From Candidatus Poribacteria bacterium (GTDB lineage Bacteria > Poribacteria > WGA-4E > WGA-3G), in assembly GCA_963663765.2 (NCBI GenBank), contig CAXXUA010000006.1, positions 64,001-128,000 of the forward strand: a DNA stretch of 64,000 nt. The letters run 5' to 3'. The position numbers were made by a program, and so were the translations under genes. This document shows positions 15,292 to 32,941 of the stretch, in pieces (position 1 is the stretch's first letter; every line of letters starts with the position of its first letter). The notes beneath the pieces were generated by a model. The model did not search any database. It was not told where the DNA came from and saw nothing but the letters and a program-made list of their open reading frames with translations.

Positions 15292-15942
15292 TCAGATTAG
15301 TTCCCGGATTTTATCACGAAAATAACAGAAACTTGGTGACTTGTTATTATTGATGTCCATATATGGTGTAATATTTCTTGCCCACTCTGATTTTTCCTTA
15401 CCGATTATAAACCAAGGCTCATTTTCAAGCACATTTGACCCTCCAGGATATATTGCATCAGCCAGATTTTCCCACGTATTGCAAATGGAGTCATTTTGAT
15501 AACTATTCAGGATGTTGGTTTTCGCTTTTGGATAAGCTTTCTTGATTGCGGTGAGATCACCAAGAAACCATGCTTCACCTTCTTCAATAGCAATGCAAAA
15601 TCGAGTTTTTGGTTTATGATTACATGCATTTAGGACAGAATTAAGTTCTTGTCGAAATGTTTTTAAGCACTTTCTATCTAAATCACAAACTACTATTAAA
15701 ACAGCTGGAAAGTTGTGAGGGTAATTGGAAAATGTTTTACCGTATCCATTGAGCAAGTTTGGAAGGCGGTCAAGTAAGATGCGTTTACTCGCGTCAGTGT
15801 GCCCTTGTAGATCTTTAGGAATGTGACCGATTCCTCGGTAACTATGGATTTTGTATGTATGTTGGTTGCCAATAATCTTTCGCATCAGAACTTTAAGTGT
15901 CTTTTCACCAGATTGATCTTCAACCAATATTTCAAAATGCAC
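15292..15942 (-). CDS. DUF4276 (TOPRIM-like) protein
   Basis: ILVED, VVCDLD, IEEGEAWFLGD, SPSF motifs; follows AAA ATPase. Confidence 0.75.
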   Translation of the reverse strand: MHFEILVEDQSGEKTLKVLMRKIIGNQHTYKIHSYRGIGHIPKDLQGHTDASKRILLDRLPNLLNGYGKTFSNYPHNFPAVLIVVCDLDRKCLKTFRQELNSVLNACNHKPKTRFCIAIEEGEAWFLGDLTAIKKAYPKAKTNILNSYQNDSICNTWENLADAIYPGGSNVLENEPWFIIGKEKSEWARNITPYMDINNNKSPSFCYFRDKIRELI

Positions 15943-15945
15943 TTA

Positions 15946-17316
15946 TCACCTCGGGTCAAGATAATCGCTGTACCAGAGTCCACCCAAGGGTAATCCTTCT
16001 TCCACAAGATTGTTTACAAGCGGATCTTCGCTTGCTCGGTGGATTTTGGAAAAACCGTCTTCACCCTTTTCCAAAATCCAAACCTCTTTTGGGTCCAATG
16101 CATCAATGAAGTATGGTTGATGCGTCGTAACAAAAACTTGCGAGCCACCTTTGCGTCCCGTTGCATGTGCTCGGAATTCAGTGGCGAGAATCTCCAAAAG
16201 TTTGTGATATAGGTAGTTTTCCGGTTCTTCAATGCAGAGAAAAGGTGGTGACGTTGGTGCTTCCAGCATTAGGAGATAGGCAAACAATTTTAGTGTTCCA
16301 TCGGACATCTGCTGTGCGTAAAATGGGTCTTGAAAACCTTTTTCGTTGAATCTAAGTAACAACTTATTGTCTTCTGTCTTTTTAGTGTCAATTTTTTCTA
16401 TACCTGGAATTTTTTCTGCGATTTTTTTTAGAATTACTTGGAAACGTCGAGGGTGTTCGCCCTCCATAAATTGAGCAAAGTTTCTTAGGTTATTACCTTG
16501 TTTATTGAGATATTCTTGCGGACCAGCAAATTGTAAGTTACGTGCTGCATCTGGAGAGAAGTAACTAAGAAACCATCCTTCAATGAAACGGCGGAAGGCA
16601 GAAATTCTCGGATGCTGTTTTAAGGCACCGAGCGTAGCAATACCAAGTTTTCGAGGATTATCCAATTCAATAGTCTCTGTTTCACTTGACTCCTCTGCTT
16701 TTATAGATTCAAGAGCAGCTTGTAGATCTAGGTTGAATTGAATGGCTAAATCTTCATTGTCTTTTTCAATCTGGAATCCTTCTTGAACATCAGTTTCTTT
16801 GGACACTTCTGATCCAATGGATTTAATTAGTTCTTTCAGGTCGTTAAATTGGTACCCGTCTTGATTACCTTTCCATACCACGCCACTTCCATTAATAAGA
16901 TCTAAAAAAGAGAAAGGTTGGCCGTATTTCTGATTCTTTCGTCTCTGTCTGAGTCTTTCATAGCGAACATAAGGACGTCCTACACTGTCAGGTGCAATAG
17001 CAATTTTGTATGTAATAGGTCTTGCATTTCCATGTTCTCTATAATATACATCAAATTCAATAGGACCTATTGCACCTTGTGACCGAATTCTCTCAAACCC
17101 CCCGCGCTCATCACATGCTGCCTCAACATCAAATTTTAGGGCATCTGCTAGGAAACCAAACGCATCAAATAGTGTAGTCTTACCAACTCCATTTTTTCCA
17201 ATTATTGTTGTTATGGGAGTGAGTGCTTCTGTTTTTTTTTGGCCCTGTAGCCGCCCTAGTGTTACATCATTGAGGACTCCATAGTTTCTTACTCTAAAAC
17301 CTTCTAATATTGCCAT
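15946..17316 (-). CDS. AAA_21 / ABC-type ATPase
   Basis: GKNGVGKT, MSDGT, CIEEPEN, TTHQP. Confidence 0.9.
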   Translation of the reverse strand: MAILEGFRVRNYGVLNDVTLGRLQGQKKTEALTPITTIIGKNGVGKTTLFDAFGFLADALKFDVEAACDERGGFERIRSQGAIGPIEFDVYYREHGNARPITYKIAIAPDSVGRPYVRYERLRQRRKNQKYGQPFSFLDLINGSGVVWKGNQDGYQFNDLKELIKSIGSEVSKETDVQEGFQIEKDNEDLAIQFNLDLQAALESIKAEESSETETIELDNPRKLGIATLGALKQHPRISAFRRFIEGWFLSYFSPDAARNLQFAGPQEYLNKQGNNLRNFAQFMEGEHPRRFQVILKKIAEKIPGIEKIDTKKTEDNKLLLRFNEKGFQDPFYAQQMSDGTLKLFAYLLMLEAPTSPPFLCIEEPENYLYHKLLEILATEFRAHATGRKGGSQVFVTTHQPYFIDALDPKEVWILEKGEDGFSKIHRASEDPLVNNLVEEGLPLGGLWYSDYLDPR

Positions 17317-22711: not shown

Positions 22712-23323
22712 CTAATTTGCTGGTGGCAAAAAATGGTAATAGAGTAGTGTGTTTGCAAGTGCCACCAGTATTCCAAAGATTGCTTGAAGGACTGTATGTC
22801 GTTTGCGGTAAATCCGCGCCCAAGCAATTAGGGGTATCAACAAAAAAAGCAACAGTAAGTATTTGTTAACAATCAATGACAGGACAATTATACAACCCGT
22901 TGCAACGCTTGTGTGGAAACTAATCTTCCAGAACGGTGTTATGATAGTAAAAACAATAGCGTTTATGATGAATGCTTGACACACCCAAATTACTGTATCA
23001 TTTGCATCAATCCAATTTAGCATGATTATACCTACAAACATGCTTAAGAAAGTAAAGCATAGTGGTATTAGTCGTTCCTCTTTTGTATGTAAATGTATAT
23101 TGCTAACCCTTGAAAACCGATATAGCAGGACTATACCTAAGATGGGTAGGATGGATACGAAAATCGCAACGATTGTTAGCCAAAGGAATAATTCCTGACT
23201 CGTATTTGCAAGTTTGCCAATAACGAATATTGCAGTAATTATTGGAACAATTAACGGACTAAAAACAATAGAAGTAACCAGAGCTATCCGTGCGGGAAAT
23301 ACCGATAAAGAATTATGTTCCAT
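22712..23323 (-). CDS. PAP2-like membrane protein
   Basis: KISFH and WARIYRKRHT motifs, about six TM helices; ATG overlaps upstream TAA. Confidence 0.7.
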   Translation of the reverse strand: MEHNSLSVFPARIALVTSIVFSPLIVPIITAIFVIGKLANTSQELFLWLTIVAIFVSILPILGIVLLYRFSRVSNIHLHTKEERLIPLCFTFLSMFVGIIMLNWIDANDTVIWVCQAFIINAIVFTIITPFWKISFHTSVATGCIIVLSLIVNKYLLLLFLLIPLIAWARIYRKRHTVLQAIFGILVALANTLLYYHFLPPAN

Positions 23324-24342
23324 TAATTGCTTTTTGGTTTTTCAAGGTTCTTGACGATTTCTACTAAATCTGCCCCATGTGTACTGGGATTAACCTCTTT
23401 CACAATCTTCACGATCTTACCTTCTTTATCAATGACAATCGCCATTCGTTTTAGACGTTCATCATCCAGTTTCTTTACTGCACCGAATAGCAATGCAAGG
23501 TTCCTGTTGGTATCTAACAATAGTGGAAAGTTCAACTTATTTGCTTCTGTAAACTTCTGGTGAGATTCAGCATCATTATGTGTTATTCCAAAGACTTGCA
23601 CGTTATGCTTTTCAAAACTACTCGACTCATCACGGAGCGAGCAAACTTGTGCAGTTCAGCGATTACCAAAATCCCTTGGATAGAACGATAATACGACATT
23701 CTTCTTATCTTTGAATTTGCTGAGTTGGTGCTGTTTTTCTTCACTATCCATAACGATAAAATCTGGTGCAAATTGTCCAACTTTTATTTTAGGTAGGGCT
23801 TTCTTTAGAAGTTTAACGACATCTTCCCCGTGTGTCTTTACCTTAACTTTCTTGTCAATAGCGCGTATATATCCCGCCTTATCAATAACGAAGGTTGTAC
23901 GCTTTGAGGCATTGAACCTTTCCATGACACCGCTATACTGCTTGCTGACTTCAAATTCGGTATCTGCAAGGAGCGAAAAACCGAATTGTTGTTCCGTTTT
24001 GAACCTTTTGTGTGAATCAACTGAGTCAACACTGACGCCGAACAAGACAGTTTCGTTTTTTTCTATTTCGCTCAATTTATCCCGGAGCGATTTTAGTTCG
24101 GTCGTTCAACCACCCGTAAAGTCTTTGGGGTAAAATGCAAGGACGACGTTTTTCTTACCCAAAAATTCGTTAAGATTTCGTGCTGTGTCAGTTTCGTCTT
24201 TTAGTGTGAAATTCGGTGCAATCATGCCAACTTTGAGTTCTTTTGGTTTTTCCACTTCTTTCTCCGCTAATACTAATGGAATAATCAATGTTGCAATTAA
24301 CAGTACTATTCCAAAATGAATAATTGATGGTTTTTTTAGCAT
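23323..24342 (-). CDS. Secreted tandem BCP/PrxQ peroxiredoxin with two selenocysteines (U79, U229), 339 aa
   Basis: Three track ORFs are one frame joined by two TGA codons: FYPKDFTGG-U-TTELKSLRD and FYPRDFGNR-U-TAQVCSLRD. Confidence 0.9.
23621..23658 (-). promoter_or_regulatory. Putative bacterial SECIS for UGA codon 229
   Basis: UGA, 14 nt, then CUCGCUC-CGUGAU-GAG(U)CGAG stem-loop. Confidence 0.7.
24068..24108 (-). promoter_or_regulatory. Putative bacterial SECIS for UGA codon 79
   Basis: UGA, 15 nt, then UCGCUC-CGGGAUAAAUU-GAGCGA stem-loop. Confidence 0.7.
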
Positions 24343-24480
24343 CTATGAATACCTCACATTTAGGATGAATTACATAATGAAAAATTCTATTCGTTTTTTC
24401 ATGACCAAAACCAATAATAAGCGTTCATTATGTAAAGTATAATCTATTCTCATCTTGGTGTCAAGAAAACTCACTGGGAG

Positions 24481-24820
24481 CAGGATTATTCAGTTTTGAG
24501 AGTTTTCTGTTCTTGAGATTTACTGAAAGTTAATACACGGGTTCGGTTTCCTAACCGAACACTATCCATCAATTTTAGATTATTGAACCATGAACATCGC
24601 TCTTTAGTCCCGTAGGGACGATATGTTTATTCTTCTATGTCGTTCCTATGGAACTCAATTGGAGTGGAAAACATTTTCTATAAACATATCGTCCCTACCA
24701 AATCAACGCCGAATGCGCCTATGGCATTCGTCGGGACTAAAGAACTGGACAAGATGGTATCACATAAAATTAACGGCATAGCAATATATTATCAAATATA
24801 TTGAAAATTAAATAACCCTA
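24481..24820. mobile_element. ISAs1-derived MITE with 34-bp micro-insertion (24698-24731)
   Basis: Degenerate ISAs1 TIRs; 9-bp TSD CACTGGGAG. Confidence 0.85.
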
Positions 24821-24844: not shown

Positions 24845-24988
24845 TCTAATGACGTTTGACAATCAAAATCGGTAGTTGAATTCGTAGGGGTTGGGTTCTC
24901 CAACCCGTTTGGTTTTTGAGTTTGCGTAGATCATGTGTGGAAACCACACCCCTACGAATACACAACTTGAACGTCAAAACTCATTAGG
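24845..24988. repeat. 144-bp CCTAATGA-type MITE-like element
   Basis: Reverse-complement copy of 13871-14014. Confidence 0.8.
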
Positions 24989-25010
24989 TTGCAAAATTAA
25001 GAATATAATG

Positions 25011-25553
25011 TTGTCATTTCTCTTGTGGGAGGGGTTTTCAACCCCGATTATGCACTATTCCAATTGTGAAATCGGGGTTGAAAACCCCTCCCACAATAGT
25101 ACATTTCGGACAATTAAATACCTTACCCGTTTTCATTTGGAAATAACGCCTTTTTCTTGAAGCCAAACCTTCAAAGGTACGTCCGCGTCTTTCGGTAAAA
25201 AATGACCGTTTGCATTCGTGCCACCGCCAAGGAGTTGTTGCCGAATGGGGTCGTTTTGTTGGAATAATTCTGTTGGTATTGTCATTTCTCTTGTGGGAGG
25301 GGTTTTCAACCCCGATTATACGGTATTCCAATTGTGAAATCGGGGTTGAAAACCCCTCCCACAATAGTACATTTCGGACAATTAAATACCTTACCCGTTT
25401 TCATTTGGAAATAACGCCTTTTTCTTGAAGCCAAACCTTCAAAGGTACGTCCGTGTCTTTCGGTGAAAAATGACCGTTTGCATTCGTGCCACCGCCAAGG
25501 AGTTGTTGCCGAATGGGGTCGTTTTGTTGGAATAATTCTGTTGGTATTGTCAT
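25011..25553. repeat. 268-bp tandem duplication (REP-like hairpin plus PhyH 3' end)
   Basis: TTGTCAT at 25011, 25279, 25547; the units differ at only a few bases. Confidence 0.92.
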
Positions 25554-27427: not shown

Positions 27428-28597
27428 GTGGTGAAAATGAAAGACACAAATAACAATAAGAACAAGCAAAATGAAGAAGCACTTACAAATGCGGAAAACA
27501 GTGTCGCTGATACGAAACCCGATGCGACTACCTCTATAGAAACATCTATTCAAAACCAGTTCAATGAACTAAAAAGCGAGTATTTAAACACACGATCTAA
27601 TTTCGTTAATCGGTTGTTAGTCTTTATATGCATCGTTCTGGTGTTTTTTACAATTGCAATTCCAGCAATAACTGCTATAGCAGCGTATTTTGTTTATTTT
27701 AAATTTGAGGAAGCACAAACCCAAATGCAAAACAATCTGAATGAAGCGAAAAACTTTGCTATAACAGCTGAAACGAGTGCCAATGAAGCTGCACAGTCTC
27801 TCAAAGTCATTAAGGAACATCAAGTAAAAATAAAAGAAATCGTATCAAAACTAACAAGTAAAGACTTTAGTAATCCCAATAAAGCCACAATTCTTAACAC
27901 AACCCTTCAAGAAATTATACAGAATCCTGAATTAACTCTTGAAGACAAGGCTACTCTTGAAGCGTATAGTCTGCAGCATCAGGGTAAAAATACAGAGGCA
28001 ATTGAGAAATGGAAATCAATAGCTGACACTGCAAAAGGCAAGAATAATGACTTGGTGGCACGCGCGTTTTTCTCTATAGGTTATCTTCATAATGAACAGA
28101 ATGAAAAGGATCAGGCACTCTCCGCTTATGACCAAGCTATTGAACTCATGCCAACTTTTGCTGATGCATATATGAGTCGGGGTATATTGAATAGCGCAAT
28201 TGAAAAAAATGAGGAAGCAATTGCTGATCATAGCGAAGCGATTCGACTAAAACCTGATTACGCTGAGGCATTCCTCTATCGTGGAATTGCAAAACTCGCT
28301 CTGAAAAAACATGAGGACGCGATTTTTGATTTTGACGAAGCGATCCGACTCAATCCGAATTCTGCACTTGTTTATGTACAAAGGGGTGTTTCTAAAAGCG
28401 CGCTGGGTCAGCATAAGGATGCAGTCGGTGACTATGACGAAGCGATCCGACTCAGTCCAAAGTTCGCTGAGGCATATATGAATCGTAGTGCAGCGAACCG
28501 TGCATTAAATCAGATGGATGCTGCACAGATGGATTTGGACAAAGCATTGGAACTTGCGAAGGAACAGGAGGACGAGACAAAGGTTGATGGTGAGTGA
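27428..28597 (+). CDS. Membrane-anchored TPR protein
   Basis: N-terminal TM, coiled coil, about five 34-aa TPR units (AY..RG...DY.EAIRL.P). Confidence 0.88.
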   Translation: MVKMKDTNNNKNKQNEEALTNAENSVADTKPDATTSIETSIQNQFNELKSEYLNTRSNFVNRLLVFICIVLVFFTIAIPAITAIAAYFVYFKFEEAQTQMQNNLNEAKNFAITAETSANEAAQSLKVIKEHQVKIKEIVSKLTSKDFSNPNKATILNTTLQEIIQNPELTLEDKATLEAYSLQHQGKNTEAIEKWKSIADTAKGKNNDLVARAFFSIGYLHNEQNEKDQALSAYDQAIELMPTFADAYMSRGILNSAIEKNEEAIADHSEAIRLKPDYAEAFLYRGIAKLALKKHEDAIFDFDEAIRLNPNSALVYVQRGVSKSALGQHKDAVGDYDEAIRLSPKFAEAYMNRSAANRALNQMDAAQMDLDKALELAKEQEDETKVDGE

Positions 28598-31257
28598 AAT
28601 CCTAATTAAGAAAATTATTTTGTGTAAGAAATTAGGTGGCGTATAAATGGATACTAAACAATTGAATGAAGGCGATCAACAAACGTCTGAGATCGTACAG
28701 AAGGTGGAATCTGAACAAACAGAAGATTCTCCTGATAATACGACAGATGAAGATGTTTCCATTGATAAACGAAAAATTCTTGAACGCATTTGGAAATTTT
28801 GTCTTCAACATCCTTTAGCTGCTGCTACATGCGTTGGTGTAGTTCTTGGCGGTATTGGTACACTTCTTCTTGGTATTGCTGCAATTCGTCCTGACAGCTC
28901 AAATTTGAGCTTAAAAGGTGAAGATATCGTCAAGTTTATTCAAGCTGTAAAATCTGATGAAACGTCACAAATTGAAAAATCACTGCAGAAGGTTGAGGAA
29001 AGTACTAAGGCTTCTATTATGGACAAGGCGGTGGTAGAAGCCTTCAGGTTGCAACAAGATGGGAGAATTGATGAGTCCATTGAAAAATGGCTTTCTATTG
29101 TAAATGTTGTAGAAGGAACCAAAAAAGATTTAACCGCAGCTTCTTGGTTCTTTCTTGGTAATCTCTATTCAGAAAAGGATGAAAGAGAACAGGCTCTATC
29201 AGCTTACGATAAGGCTGTTGCCTTAAAGCCAGAATTTGCTAAAGTTTATGTGTTTCGAGGTAGTGTATATGATTCACTTGGCAATTATGAAGAAGCAATT
29301 GCTAACTTTAATACTGCAATTGAACTGAAACCTGATTATTTTATTACTTACTTGACTCGAGGAAATACTCTGAGTAACCTTGGTAAACATCAAGAAGGTG
29401 TAGTTGATTGCAACAAAGCAATTGAAATAAAACCTGATTTTGCTTTTGCTTATGTGGTTCGTGGAAACGTTATGAATAATTATGGTAAGTATGAAGAAGC
29501 CATTGTTGATTGCAACAAAGCAATTAAAATAAAACCTGACTCTTCGTCTGCTTATCTGATTCGTGGTAATGCCTTGAACGCTCTTAGTAAACATAAGGAA
29601 GCAATTGCTGATTACAATAAAGCAATTGAATTGAAGAGTGATTCTGTTAATGCTTATCTGTTTCGTGGAATAGTCCTGAAGAATCTTGGCAAATATGAAG
29701 AAGTGATAGCAGGTTGCAACAAAATTATAGAAATAAGACCAGATTTCGCTCCTGCCTACTTTATCAGAGGTAATGTGTTTAGTACTCTTAATAGGCACCA
29801 AGAGGCGATTGCTGACTATGATAAAGTTATTAATCTTGAACCTGAATTTGTTGAAGTGTATTTAAATCGAGGAAATGTCCTGAAGAATCTTGGTAAACAT
29901 AAAGAAGCAATTACTGACTACGACAAATTGATAAGTCTAAAACCTAATTATGCTGTGGCATATACAAATCGAGGAACGGTAAAAGATGATTTGGGTAAAC
30001 ATGTAGAGGCAATTGAAGATCATAATATAGCATTAAATCTAAAACCCGATTAAGCTGTAGCCTACACAAACCGTGGAAATTCCTATGAGAAACTTGGTGT
30101 ATTTGTGAATGCACTTGCTGATCATCATAAAGCAATTAGTCTTAATCCTGAGATAGCTGCGTTTTATTATAATCGAGCTATTGTATTGGGAAAACTAAAA
30201 AAGTATAAGGAATCAATTGTTAACTATGATCAGGCCATAAGACTCAATCCCGATTTTGCTTTTGCTTACCTAAACCGAGGTAATATAAAGAGTTTTCTTG
30301 GAGAACATAAAAATGCGATCACTGATTATGATAAGGCAATTAATCTAAAGCCCGATTTTGCTGATGCATACCTAAACCGAGGTAGTATTAAGAGTTTTCT
30401 TGGAAAACATGAGGAAGCAATTATTGACTTTGATAAAGCTATAGATTTGGATCCTGAATCAGCTGAAGCGTATGCAAATAGAGGCACTGTGCAGAGTAAG
30501 TTAGAGAAATATAAAGTAGCTATTAAGGATTTGGACAAAGCGATTAATCTAAAACCGGATTATGCCTTAGCCTATGCTAATAGGGGGATAACGAAGAATG
30601 CACTTGGAAAATATAAAGAGGCGATTATAGATTATGACAATGCAATTAGTTTAAAACAGGATTTTGATCAAGTTATCTTGAATCAGGGGATAACCCTAGC
30701 CGACGTATACTACAATCGTGGTTTTGCAAAGGATGCAATTAAAGAATATGAAGAAGCAATCCGAGATTTTGACGAAGCTCTCACACTAGATCCTAATTTA
30801 ATTGTAGCATTGGTAAAAAGGGGTCATACGAAAAAGGTTCTTGGGAGATATGAAGAAGCAATCAAAGATTACGATAAAGCCATAAATTTGAAATCAGATT
30901 TTGAAGGGTTTTACAAAGATCAAAACGTAACGCTTGCATGGGTTTACTACAGTCGGGGAATTTCCAAAGATGCAATTAAGCAACATGAAGCAGCGATCAA
31001 AGATTATGATGATGCTATTAGACTTAAACCGGATGATTTTCAAATCCACTTTAAACGAGGCAATGCAAAAAGCAAACTTGGTCAATATAGAAGTGCAATT
31101 GATGACTATAATGAAACGATAAAGTTAAAACCAGATGCTGCGATTGCTTATTTTAATCGTGGAATTACAAAGGAAGATATAGGTCAGTATGATCAGGCAA
31201 TTACCGATTATAGTGAGGCAATTCGTCTTAAACCAGACGCAATCAAATATTATACTA

Positions 31258-32506
31258 GTAGATAGTCCATTCTAATTGTTCGGGTATAGATGTTTTAATC
31301 GTACGCGTGCATCGTCCGTTGTAAATTGCCAGTTTACCTGCTTTTGCTCTGCATTTCGCCGTTTTTGCCAGGCTTGTGTCTCTCTATGGAGTGTCTCTAT
31401 ATCTGGGATACGCCGACACAAACATTGACGCGTAAGGACACTCAGTTCTATTTCCGCTATATTCAACCAACTTCCATGTACTGGCGTATGCACGATTTCT
31501 AAACGCTTACGCAACCTATTTGCTTCCTCATCTCCAAACACTTTATTGAGCGTCGAAAGTTTGTGTATATTCAGGTTGTCACAAACTAAAATCACACTTT
31601 TTGCTGATGAGTAGTCCTGATCCAATAGTATTTTTACTTCTTCTGCCCAATCCTCTGCCTTTCTGCGCGTCCGAACAGACACACGCCTCCATCCCGATAA
31701 TGCTTCTGTGAATAGGAAGATATTTGCCGTGCCTTTGCGTTTATACTCATTATCTACACGCTTGACTTGCCCCGGTTTCACAGGATGCGGATCCCGAACA
31801 TCATCCCTAAGCGTGACAGATTGTTCGTCCATGTTCACAACAGGTATTTCTGTATCTAAAGGTTTCTGGTAAAGATCAAGCACTTCTTCCATCGACTTTA
31901 CAAACTCAGCATCTTTTTCAGGGGGAATCACCCACTGTTGCTGAAGGTGCGGCTTCAAAGCGTTTTTTTTAGTGTCTGTCTTACCGTTTCTGGAGAAATG
32001 CTTTCCACGATTTCAAGTCTTACCAATTCTGACGCAAGTAGGCGTAAAGTCCATTTAGCAGCACCTTCGGGAGGTTCGCTACAACTCAGTGCTATCAAGC
32101 GTGCTTCAGCTTCACCATCAAGTTTACGAGGTGTGGGAGGATGCTCTCGCTTAGCACGAAATAAGACACGAGAAAAACCACCTTCAGCAAAACGCTTACG
32201 CACTTTCGCGACTGTCCTATCAGTGCACTCATACGCTTCAGCTATTTTCCCATCAGTCCAACCGGGACCATTGACATCTGATTTCAGCAAAATATGAGCA
32301 TTCCTTATCTTATACGCCTCTTTTTTACCTGTGTTTATACAATCTAACAACTCCTGCCGCTCCGAATCAGTGAGTTTTACAACATATTTCTTAGTCAAGG
32401 TTGTGTTCCTCCTTAAGTTTTGCTATACTATAAGAGAAAAACTCTTGTTTGTCAAGATACTAAGAAACAAAAAAATAAATACAAACTTTTAGTATGGACT
32501 ATCTAC
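31258..32506 (-). mobile_element. IS630 family insertion sequence
   Basis: TIR GTAGATAGTCCAT / ATGGACTATCTAC; TA duplication in CTAG context. Confidence 0.93.
31272..32398 (-). CDS. IS630 transposase, two ORFs joined by probable programmed -1 frameshift
   Basis: HTH ORF plus DDE ORF (MDE, CDNL, SWLNIAE); slippery A8C near 31962-31970 gives KKNALKPH. Confidence 0.88.
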
Positions 32507-32941
32507 TAGAGGCGGTGCAAAGTTAAAACTAGCCAAATATGAATCAGCGATTGCAGATTACGAATTGGCAATTGGGTTAGATCCAAAATATACCATAGCA
32601 TATAATAATCGTGGCTATGCAAAGTTGTTTCTTGAGCAGTATGAATCTGCCCTAGAGGACTTTAATTTTGCAATTAAGTTAAAACCAAATAGCGCCCTTA
32701 TATATTATAATCGCGGAAAGGTGAACATTTACCTTCATAGGTTTCAACAAGCAAAATCGGATTATGAAGTTGCATTGAAACTAGCAGAAGATTCTGGTAA
32801 TTTAGATCTAAAAAGCATGATTGAGAAGAGAATGCTTATTGACGGTATATATAAACAGGACTCGAAAGAGTAAAAAACTTTCAAAATGGTGACAAATAAA
32901 CATTATCAATATTGCAAATTTCAATCGTAAAATCATTAAAC

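Follow-up and report, generated by a model that had tools for sequence, protein, structure and literature searches.

A conserved, mis-annotated double selenoprotein of Candidatus Poribacteria: a tandem PrxQ/BCP peroxiredoxin with family-wide loss of a catalytic threonine

Single peroxiredoxins (Prx) with selenocysteine (Sec) and other double selenoproteins have been catalogued. The enzyme type described here is known, and the present case is one of known chemistry in a new arrangement. A 2026 inventory (PMC13188914, Table 1) comprises 119 families, among them a Prx with one Sec and several other families with two or three, and the available part of PMC9312934 lists the same one-Sec Prx family. 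A tandem double-Sec Prx is absent from Table 1 of PMC13188914, and the available parts of PMC1976440 and PMC13582414 contain nothing on such a protein. The open literature searched holds no description of a double-Sec tandem Prx or of a Thr-less second domain as reported below; supplements and subscription journals lay outside this search, and a listing in RefSeq or in a supplement is possible. For PprX of Caulobacter, an exported PrxQ, the accessible part of PMC3322552 describes reduction by ScsB via TlpA and also that DsbD-gamma can reduce PprX directly.

The 64,000-nucleotide stretch of Candidatus Poribacteria DNA analysed here (the window) carries on its minus strand a gene (23323..24342) that starts with an ATG at 24342, ends with a TAA at 23325-23323 and consists of 339 codons. 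Frame, Pfam and NCBIfam matches and homologues identify its product as a tandem PrxQ/BCP peroxiredoxin of 339 aa with Sec79 and Sec229. Using genetic code 11, the gene falls into three ORFs at 24106-24342 (78 aa), 23656-24075 (139 aa) and 23323-23601 (92 aa). The original prediction had placed these ORFs in one frame, and re-reading of the frame confirmed that its sole internal stops are the TGA codons 79 (24108-24106) and 229 (23658-23656) and that the motifs given for them, FYPKDFTGG-U and FYPRDFGNR-U, are both exact. The strand, which had not been given, is minus, and a plus-strand reading of 23323-24342 is closed by many stops. The Asn-Arg directly before Sec229 is private to the source strain, as 40 of the 41 other family members have Arg-Gly and one has Thr-Gly at these positions. 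Contigs of run X3 match 23623-24090 and 24064-24500 with 0 differences, both TGAs included, and since X3 is possibly related to the source of the window this agreement excludes an assembly slip only. RNA libraries X10 and X11 gave identical tables with short contig pieces only, mostly from relatives.

For the study of conservation, 61 full-length copies were compared, 42 from the source family (f1) and 19 from three other families (f2-f4); L075, which contains an in-frame TAA, L081, which is interrupted at a join of low quality, the paralog L099 and single-domain loci were left out. At both sites a TGA is present in 61/61 copies, at identities down to about 50%. With the X3 contigs and these homologues, the tandem TGA frame is neither due to chance nor to an assembly error.

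Upstream of the gene, a Shine-Dalgarno-like pentamer (24351..24355, minus strand) can be read from the sequence 8 nt before the ATG. A promoter-like site (24436..24464, minus strand) that ends 94 nt upstream of the start matches the consensus at 11 of 12 bases with a 17-nt spacer, and 7 promoter-like sites were found when 8.0 were expected by chance. Palindromic intergenic repeats, some of them in repeated copies and with terminator-like stems, extend over 24600-24745 and 24880-25430 of the window. At 31272-32398 (minus strand) two overlapping ORFs that resemble a split IS630-type transposase lie within a long TPR-repeat gene (27428-32873). At 15292-17316 (minus strand) a 456-aa ABC-type ATPase precedes a TOPRIM-like ORF of 216 aa, an arrangement reminiscent of an ATPase-nuclease defence pair.

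All four components of the Sec machinery that the original prediction had proposed to look for are present in the source genome. Scores of 620.8 bits for selA, 361.6 bits for selB and 367.6 bits for selD are above the respective cut-offs, the gene for tRNA-Sec is located about 50 nt downstream of selB, and selD itself contains a TGA. In the phylum, selA was detected in 163 of 176 genomes. In G098, G104 and G106 the tandem Prx gene lies about 2.5-3.8 kb from selA and points away from it, and in the source genome (G000) the two are on separate contigs. In a sequence alignment, the first TGA coincides with the peroxidatic Cys of AhpE from Mycobacterium tuberculosis. A single mRNA would be read through at both UGAs by SelB and Sec-tRNA, each UGA having its own in-frame SECIS hairpin, and at the sequence level this double read-through with two SECIS hairpins is strongly supported.

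Both SECIS-like hairpins are on the minus strand. In the bSECIS model, as given in the available part of PMC13188914, the loop lies 16-37 nt after the UGA, a G is found at loop position 1 or 2, the loop has 3-9 nt and the MFE is at most -7.5. Hairpin 2 (23617..23649), with a 6-nt loop at a distance of 21 nt from the UGA, a G in the second loop position and -14.0 kcal/mol, agrees with this part of the model in every respect. Hairpin 1 (24068..24090), whose loop begins 21 nt past the UGA and likewise has G as its second base, agrees in distance and G, whereas its 11-nt loop and -7.4 kcal/mol are narrowly outside the limits given there; it shares conserved core codons with hairpin 2. Single-sequence folding did not separate the hairpins from shuffles (z from -0.10 to -1.44; -1.44 for hairpin 1 and -1.21 for hairpin 2). 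In the homologues, Ser at +6 after the TGA is encoded by TCG in 54/61 copies at site 1 and 46/61 at site 2 (genome background 7%), Leu at +7 by CTC in 60/61 at both sites (background 15%), and Arg at +8 after both TGAs by CGG or CGT only (background 39%). A test for a folded hairpin with the loop 16-37 nt after the UGA and a G in its first two positions was passed by 55/61 copies at site 1 and 61/61 at site 2, compared to 101/457 true TGA stops and 172/500 Cys codons; as the homologues are kin (42/61 from one family) and the background for hairpins and codons is one genome, no P value is attached to this comparison. The support for the putative SECIS elements is a cross-species constraint on synonymous codons rather than single-sequence folding. 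When the whole genome was searched for the exact core motif following a TGA, 6 matches were obtained, two of which are this gene; a looser pattern with 1604 matches was of no use.

A crude coding-score scan for other TGA read-throughs kept 51 of 26630 candidates; it missed both sites of this gene and selD and included many true stops, and for this reason we claim no size for the selenoproteome. Read-through candidates in G000 include a thioredoxin-like UxxC protein (C13:345416), two HMA-like UxxC proteins (C15:299944 and C14:7140), further ones with redox or metal motifs (C4:460219, C4:881083 and C2:254304) and C13:519449, presumably formate dehydrogenase-like. L103 (G023:C1:655559-656557) and L104 (G025) represent a second kind of double-Sec tandem, a 528-aa protein in which a signal peptide is followed by two Prx-like domains with UxxC and by a further domain at the C-terminus.

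Domain 1 (23794..24243, minus strand), assigned to the PrxQ fold by homologue alignment and fold search, has Pro72, Thr76, Sec79 and Arg148 and no resolving Cys. Domain 2 (23338..23793, minus strand), assigned to the same fold by homologue alignment, has Pro222, Gly226, Sec229, the resolving Cys234 and Arg299. As predicted, domain 1 retains Thr without a resolving Cys, and domain 2 has a UxxxxC motif, with Cys234 as the only Cys of the protein, and Gly in place of Thr. The two domains are 40% identical over 149 residues. Pfam AhpC-TSA (PF00578) matches the protein twice, best at residues 38-161 (E 5.7e-67), and NCBIfam BCP PRK09437 scores 187 bits against a cut-off of 140, a score summed over two domains. 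As predicted, both TGAs fall at the peroxidatic position of a BCP/PrxQ domain. PrxU (NF040737) remained below its cut-off with 103.7 bits against 270, and a Prx-like UxxC/UxxU or SelL-related class is excluded by the motifs TxxU and UxxxxC and by 42.2 bits for NF040769 against a cut-off of 120.

Thr76 and Arg148 of domain 1 are conserved in 61/61 copies and Pro72 in 59/61, and a Cys five residues after Sec is found in this domain in 4/61. In domain 2, Arg299 is present in 61/61 and the resolving Cys in 60/61 copies. A search for PxxxT/SxxC(U) plus Arg recovers domain 1 (Pro72, Thr76, Sec79, Arg148) and fails on domain 2 at Gly226, although it recovers domain 2 in 19/19 copies from the other three families; on sequence grounds, domain 2 is a Prx by descent and not by motif. 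At its Thr position, Gly occurs in 42/42 f1 copies and Thr in 19/19 f2-f4 copies. The asymmetric active sites of the original prediction are therefore of two kinds: the half concerning the resolving Cys is order-wide (60/61 in domain 2, 4/61 in domain 1), whereas the change from Thr to Gly is no general trait and is confined to one family (42/42 inside, 0/19 outside). In a quick tree of 80 domains with SH-aLRT support only, domains 1 and 2 formed separate clades (support 99 each), the sister relation of which is not settled by this tree. The 12 Gly-bearing domains included formed one clade (support 100) nested among Thr-bearing domains, which indicates that the order started from a tandem in which both sites were complete and that the Gly site is derived.

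An AlphaFold2 model of residues 31-339, made with Cys for Sec and 47 sequences, had a pLDDT of 91.6 and a pTM of 0.90, values that would suggest domains packed in a fixed way. The two active-site loops were its least confident internal blocks (pLDDT 72 and 73). In a fold search, the best solved matches were AhpE and BCP.

What the loss of Thr may mean can be judged from other peroxiredoxins. According to the available part of PMC5024103, a Thr-to-Ala form of yeast Tsa1 is about 1000-fold slower and still active, and Thr-to-Val costs more. For a Leishmania Prx, only a hydroxyl residue is tolerated at this position, as cited in the part of PMC7231847 at hand, where Sec is also computed to lower the barrier. 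In view of the Tsa1 and Leishmania results, as far as these sources give them, the chemistry of domain 2 has probably changed in f1, by analogy, while selection holds its Sec, SECIS, Arg and Cys; given the hydroxyl requirement of the Leishmania enzyme in the same part of PMC7231847, domain 2 may even lack peroxidase function altogether.

When 176 genomes of the phylum were searched, a tandem match better than 1e-90 was obtained in 149 of the 159 genomes of the source order. Five of the remaining order genomes have single-domain forms and five have no match at 1e-20, and in the 17 phylum genomes from outside this order no score is better than 1e-27. Among the 150 matches listed, besides which there are 21 further ones, 138 contain exactly two TGAs and 147 at least two. 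Close relatives among 20 titled loci are Candidatus Poribacteria in 13/13 cases. G101 (one contig, 94% complete) gave no match at 1e-15 and has no Prx remnant beside the neighbouring gene, so that the tandem gene is not essential everywhere.

Reduced forms of the tandem were also found. Genes with domain 1 only occur in G031 and as a paralog in G051 (L082, L100), and four genomes of genus g13 carry single genes that have the domain 2 motif and lack a signal peptide (L083-L086, L101). In some paralogs one of the sites is dead, that of domain 1 in L099 and that of domain 2 in P0016 and P0019, and L059 has no Cys in either domain. Those single-domain forms that were included in the quick tree fall within the clades of domain 1 and domain 2. 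The single Sec-Prx of g13 (153 aa) has a domain-1-like start and groups with domain 2 over the rest, and it possibly arose from a tandem that collapsed by recombination at the near-identical active-site stretch. P0069 was the only non-Poribacteria-like chain with two complete Cys PrxQ sites among the 213 proteins of two protein searches, and since its halves group together (support 100) it represents a separate duplication.

Residues 1-26 (24265..24342, minus strand) form a probable Sec-pathway (SPase I) signal peptide with a putative cleavage site, no twin-Arg and no lipobox Cys. The signal peptide had been predicted, and inspection by eye (basic residues, a long hydrophobic stretch, a small-residue cleavage pattern) and a hydrophobicity rule (best 11-aa hydropathy mean, cut-off 2.0) are in agreement with it; the source protein reaches 3.12, and 56 of the 61 homologues pass this rule but 5 fail. 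To judge from signal peptide and model, the chain would be exported via the general secretion pathway and would fold as two tightly packed PrxQ domains. The genome encodes a DsbD-family protein (625 aa; PF02683, 184 bits) and several exported Prx-like proteins with UxxC. Both sites may be recycled from the cytoplasm via DsbD, directly or through the genome's exported Sec thioredoxin-like proteins, a route that we infer by analogy to PprX in Caulobacter. Five more Prx-like matches with one TGA were observed in G000 at C5:472277-473422 (L014, L015), C15:303691-304080 (L017), C5:150454-150816 (L018) and C8:52501-52938 (L016); UxxC is present in the three inspected (L015, L017 and L018), of which two have a lipoprotein-like N-terminus and the third lies at the end of a long repeat stalk. 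These additional single-TGA proteins are candidate electron donors. In summary, the Sec machinery, the invariant TGAs, two SECIS-like hairpins and DsbD in the genome make it well supported that what look like three gene fragments form a single gene, whose product is probably exported and contains two Sec and PrxQ/BCP domains.

With regard to function, we favour, as the somewhat more probable account, an exported selenol peroxidase whose two sites would work largely independently of each other, with recycling by DsbD and a re-tuned domain 2. Domain 1, with its full Thr-Sec-Arg triad, would reduce hydroperoxides, and an external thiol or selenol would resolve its selenenic acid. Domain 2 would resolve internally as a Sec229-Cys234 selenylsulfide. 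In the ancestor of the order both domains would have been complete peroxidases, and in f1 domain 2 would have lost the Thr hydroxyl but not its Sec, SECIS, Arg or resolving Cys. What was kept suggests that domain 2 is still catalytic but re-tuned, and it may be slower with H2O2 or may have shifted to another oxidant or to dichalcogenide exchange. The single-domain, dead-domain and Cys-free relatives were counted in favour of domain independence.

Electrons might instead be relayed between the domains, as the original prediction had proposed, with domain 1 as the peroxidase and the Thr-less domain 2 as its fused, built-in reductant. Within the chain or a dimer, Sec229 would attack the oxidised Sec79 to give a transient diselenide, Cys234 would resolve it and DsbD would reduce the Sec229-Cys234 bond. 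We regard this as rather doubtful, although several observations speak for it. The resolving Cys is restricted to domain 2 in 56/61 homologues; a conserved Cys-less domain 1 (57/61), a Cys-bearing domain 2 (60/61) and a rigid packing are what a relay needs; the loss of Thr is fixed in 42/42 family members that retain Sec, SECIS, Arg and Cys; and other lineages fuse PrxQ, often without a resolving Cys, to a CxxC domain (P0026, P0027, P0032, P0068, P0070, P0094, P0191). The low confidence of the active-site loops in the model would be compatible with local unfolding. However, outside f1 domain 2 is a complete peroxidase site with Thr in 19/19 copies, and Arg299, which peroxide activation requires, does not vary. 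That a site can persist without its partner is indicated by the single-domain and dead-domain relatives and by L059, which lacks any resolving Cys, and four copies have a resolving Cys of their own in domain 1. Also, the linker is of a few residues and the model is predicted to be rigid (pTM 0.90). It is unlikely that domain 2 of f1 was converted from a peroxidase to a selenol reductase fused to domain 1, by which a self-contained Sec-to-Sec relay would have arisen in the periplasm; if true, exchanging two residues could replay this conversion, since forms in the ancestral state, with both sites complete, persist in the order.

Directly downstream, 22712..23323 (minus strand) encodes a membrane protein of 203 aa that matches PAP2 weakly (PF01569, E 3e-5, below the cut-off). 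It is assigned by this match and synteny, and its ATG overlaps the stop codon of the Prx gene by 1 nt. This PAP2-like gene follows the tandem Prx gene in 43/43 f1 loci of the examined genomes, in the 13 titled loci as well, and in 0/28 other loci, the same split as that of Thr and Gly. Such a distribution would fit a domain 2 that in f1 is no longer a net peroxide remover and serves as a redox sensor or chaperone-like scaffold, possibly together with a coupled PAP2-like membrane protein, and dead-domain paralogs do retain the two-domain frame. We consider this very unlikely, because the adjacency and the change from Thr to Gly mark one clade and point to a single event. In f2 and f3 the PAP2-like gene is unlinked (15/15 genomes tested), in f4 it was not found with the source query (0/6), and in G101 it persists with no Prx remnant beside it. 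The adjacency is one evolutionary event, with no evidence of a functional link.

The reading of the TGAs as real stops of a broken gene, as sequencing errors or as Trp under genetic code 4, for which the Trp at both sites in the full-length database copies P0002-P0005, P0009, P0013-P0015 and P0017 might be cited, deserves hardly any credence, since both TGAs fall on the catalytic Cys position in 61/61 homologues, TGA is a normal stop elsewhere in the genome (it ends 421 of 2252 long ORFs), the sole UCA-anticodon tRNA found was called tRNA-Sec, and the Trp in the database entries is a choice of the gene caller. Invariant TGAs, TGA stop use and tRNA-Sec rule out code 4, pseudogene and sequencing error alike; the Trp codon TGG occurs 17465 times in the genome.

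The tandem Prx gene is near-universal in an order of sponge-associated and marine bacteria. Since gene callers split it in three or insert Trp, the antioxidant capacity of the envelope is invisible in annotations. The natural series of intact-Thr, Gly, single-domain, dead-domain and Cys-free forms bears on what Sec adds to a peroxiredoxin and on whether the catalytic Thr is dispensable with a selenol nucleophile. Two SECIS elements in one short bacterial mRNA, one strong and one marginal, provide material for studying double read-through.

How the protein relates to known systems can be stated as follows. It had been called unusual, which holds in so far as the doubled Sec form was not found in the literature searched, but is tempered by the existence of bacterial proteins with two or three Sec, of exported PrxQ such as PprX and of P0069, a tandem PrxQ that has Cys only and whose N-terminus is hydrophobic. 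With the Sec-containing Prx family (PF00578, COG1225 Bcp, TxxU; PMC13188914, Table 1, and PMC9312934, as far as available) it shares Sec at the peroxidatic position, PxxxTxxU in domain 1 and a SECIS within the coding sequence; that family is listed there with one Sec, whereas the source protein has two each of domains, Sec and SECIS, besides a probable signal peptide and PxxxGxxU in domain 2. PprX of Caulobacter crescentus, likened here by its description in the available part of PMC3322552, is similarly a BCP/PrxQ protein; it has a signal sequence, as the source protein probably does, and is recycled by a DsbD-family carrier, as the source protein may be, but has a single domain, Cys chemistry and an intact Thr. 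The best solved matches, AhpE of M. tuberculosis (PDB 1xvw, 4x1u) and Sulfolobus Bcp1 (3drn) and Bcp4 (3hjp), with E of about 1e-21 and a target TM of 0.83-0.91, are all single-domain chains, unlike the source tandem; AhpE is titled 1-Cys and in this resembles domain 1. As the query TM is at most 0.46 among the matches listed, no solved chain listed has the tandem. MduS, MbdU, TsoB, HUGP/GUXX-star and Prx-like UxxU (PMC13188914, Table 1) share two UGA-Sec codons in one frame, but none of the double selenoproteins listed there is a duplicated true peroxiredoxin. P0069 and the PrxQ-CxxC fusions named above, which are metagenome proteins, also have two thioredoxin-fold domains per chain, most with a hydrophobic N-terminus, and carry Cys where the source protein has Sec. 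Compared with these systems, the source protein is a real, conserved and mis-annotated double selenoprotein, whose sharp feature is the family-wide loss of the catalytic Thr of domain 2.
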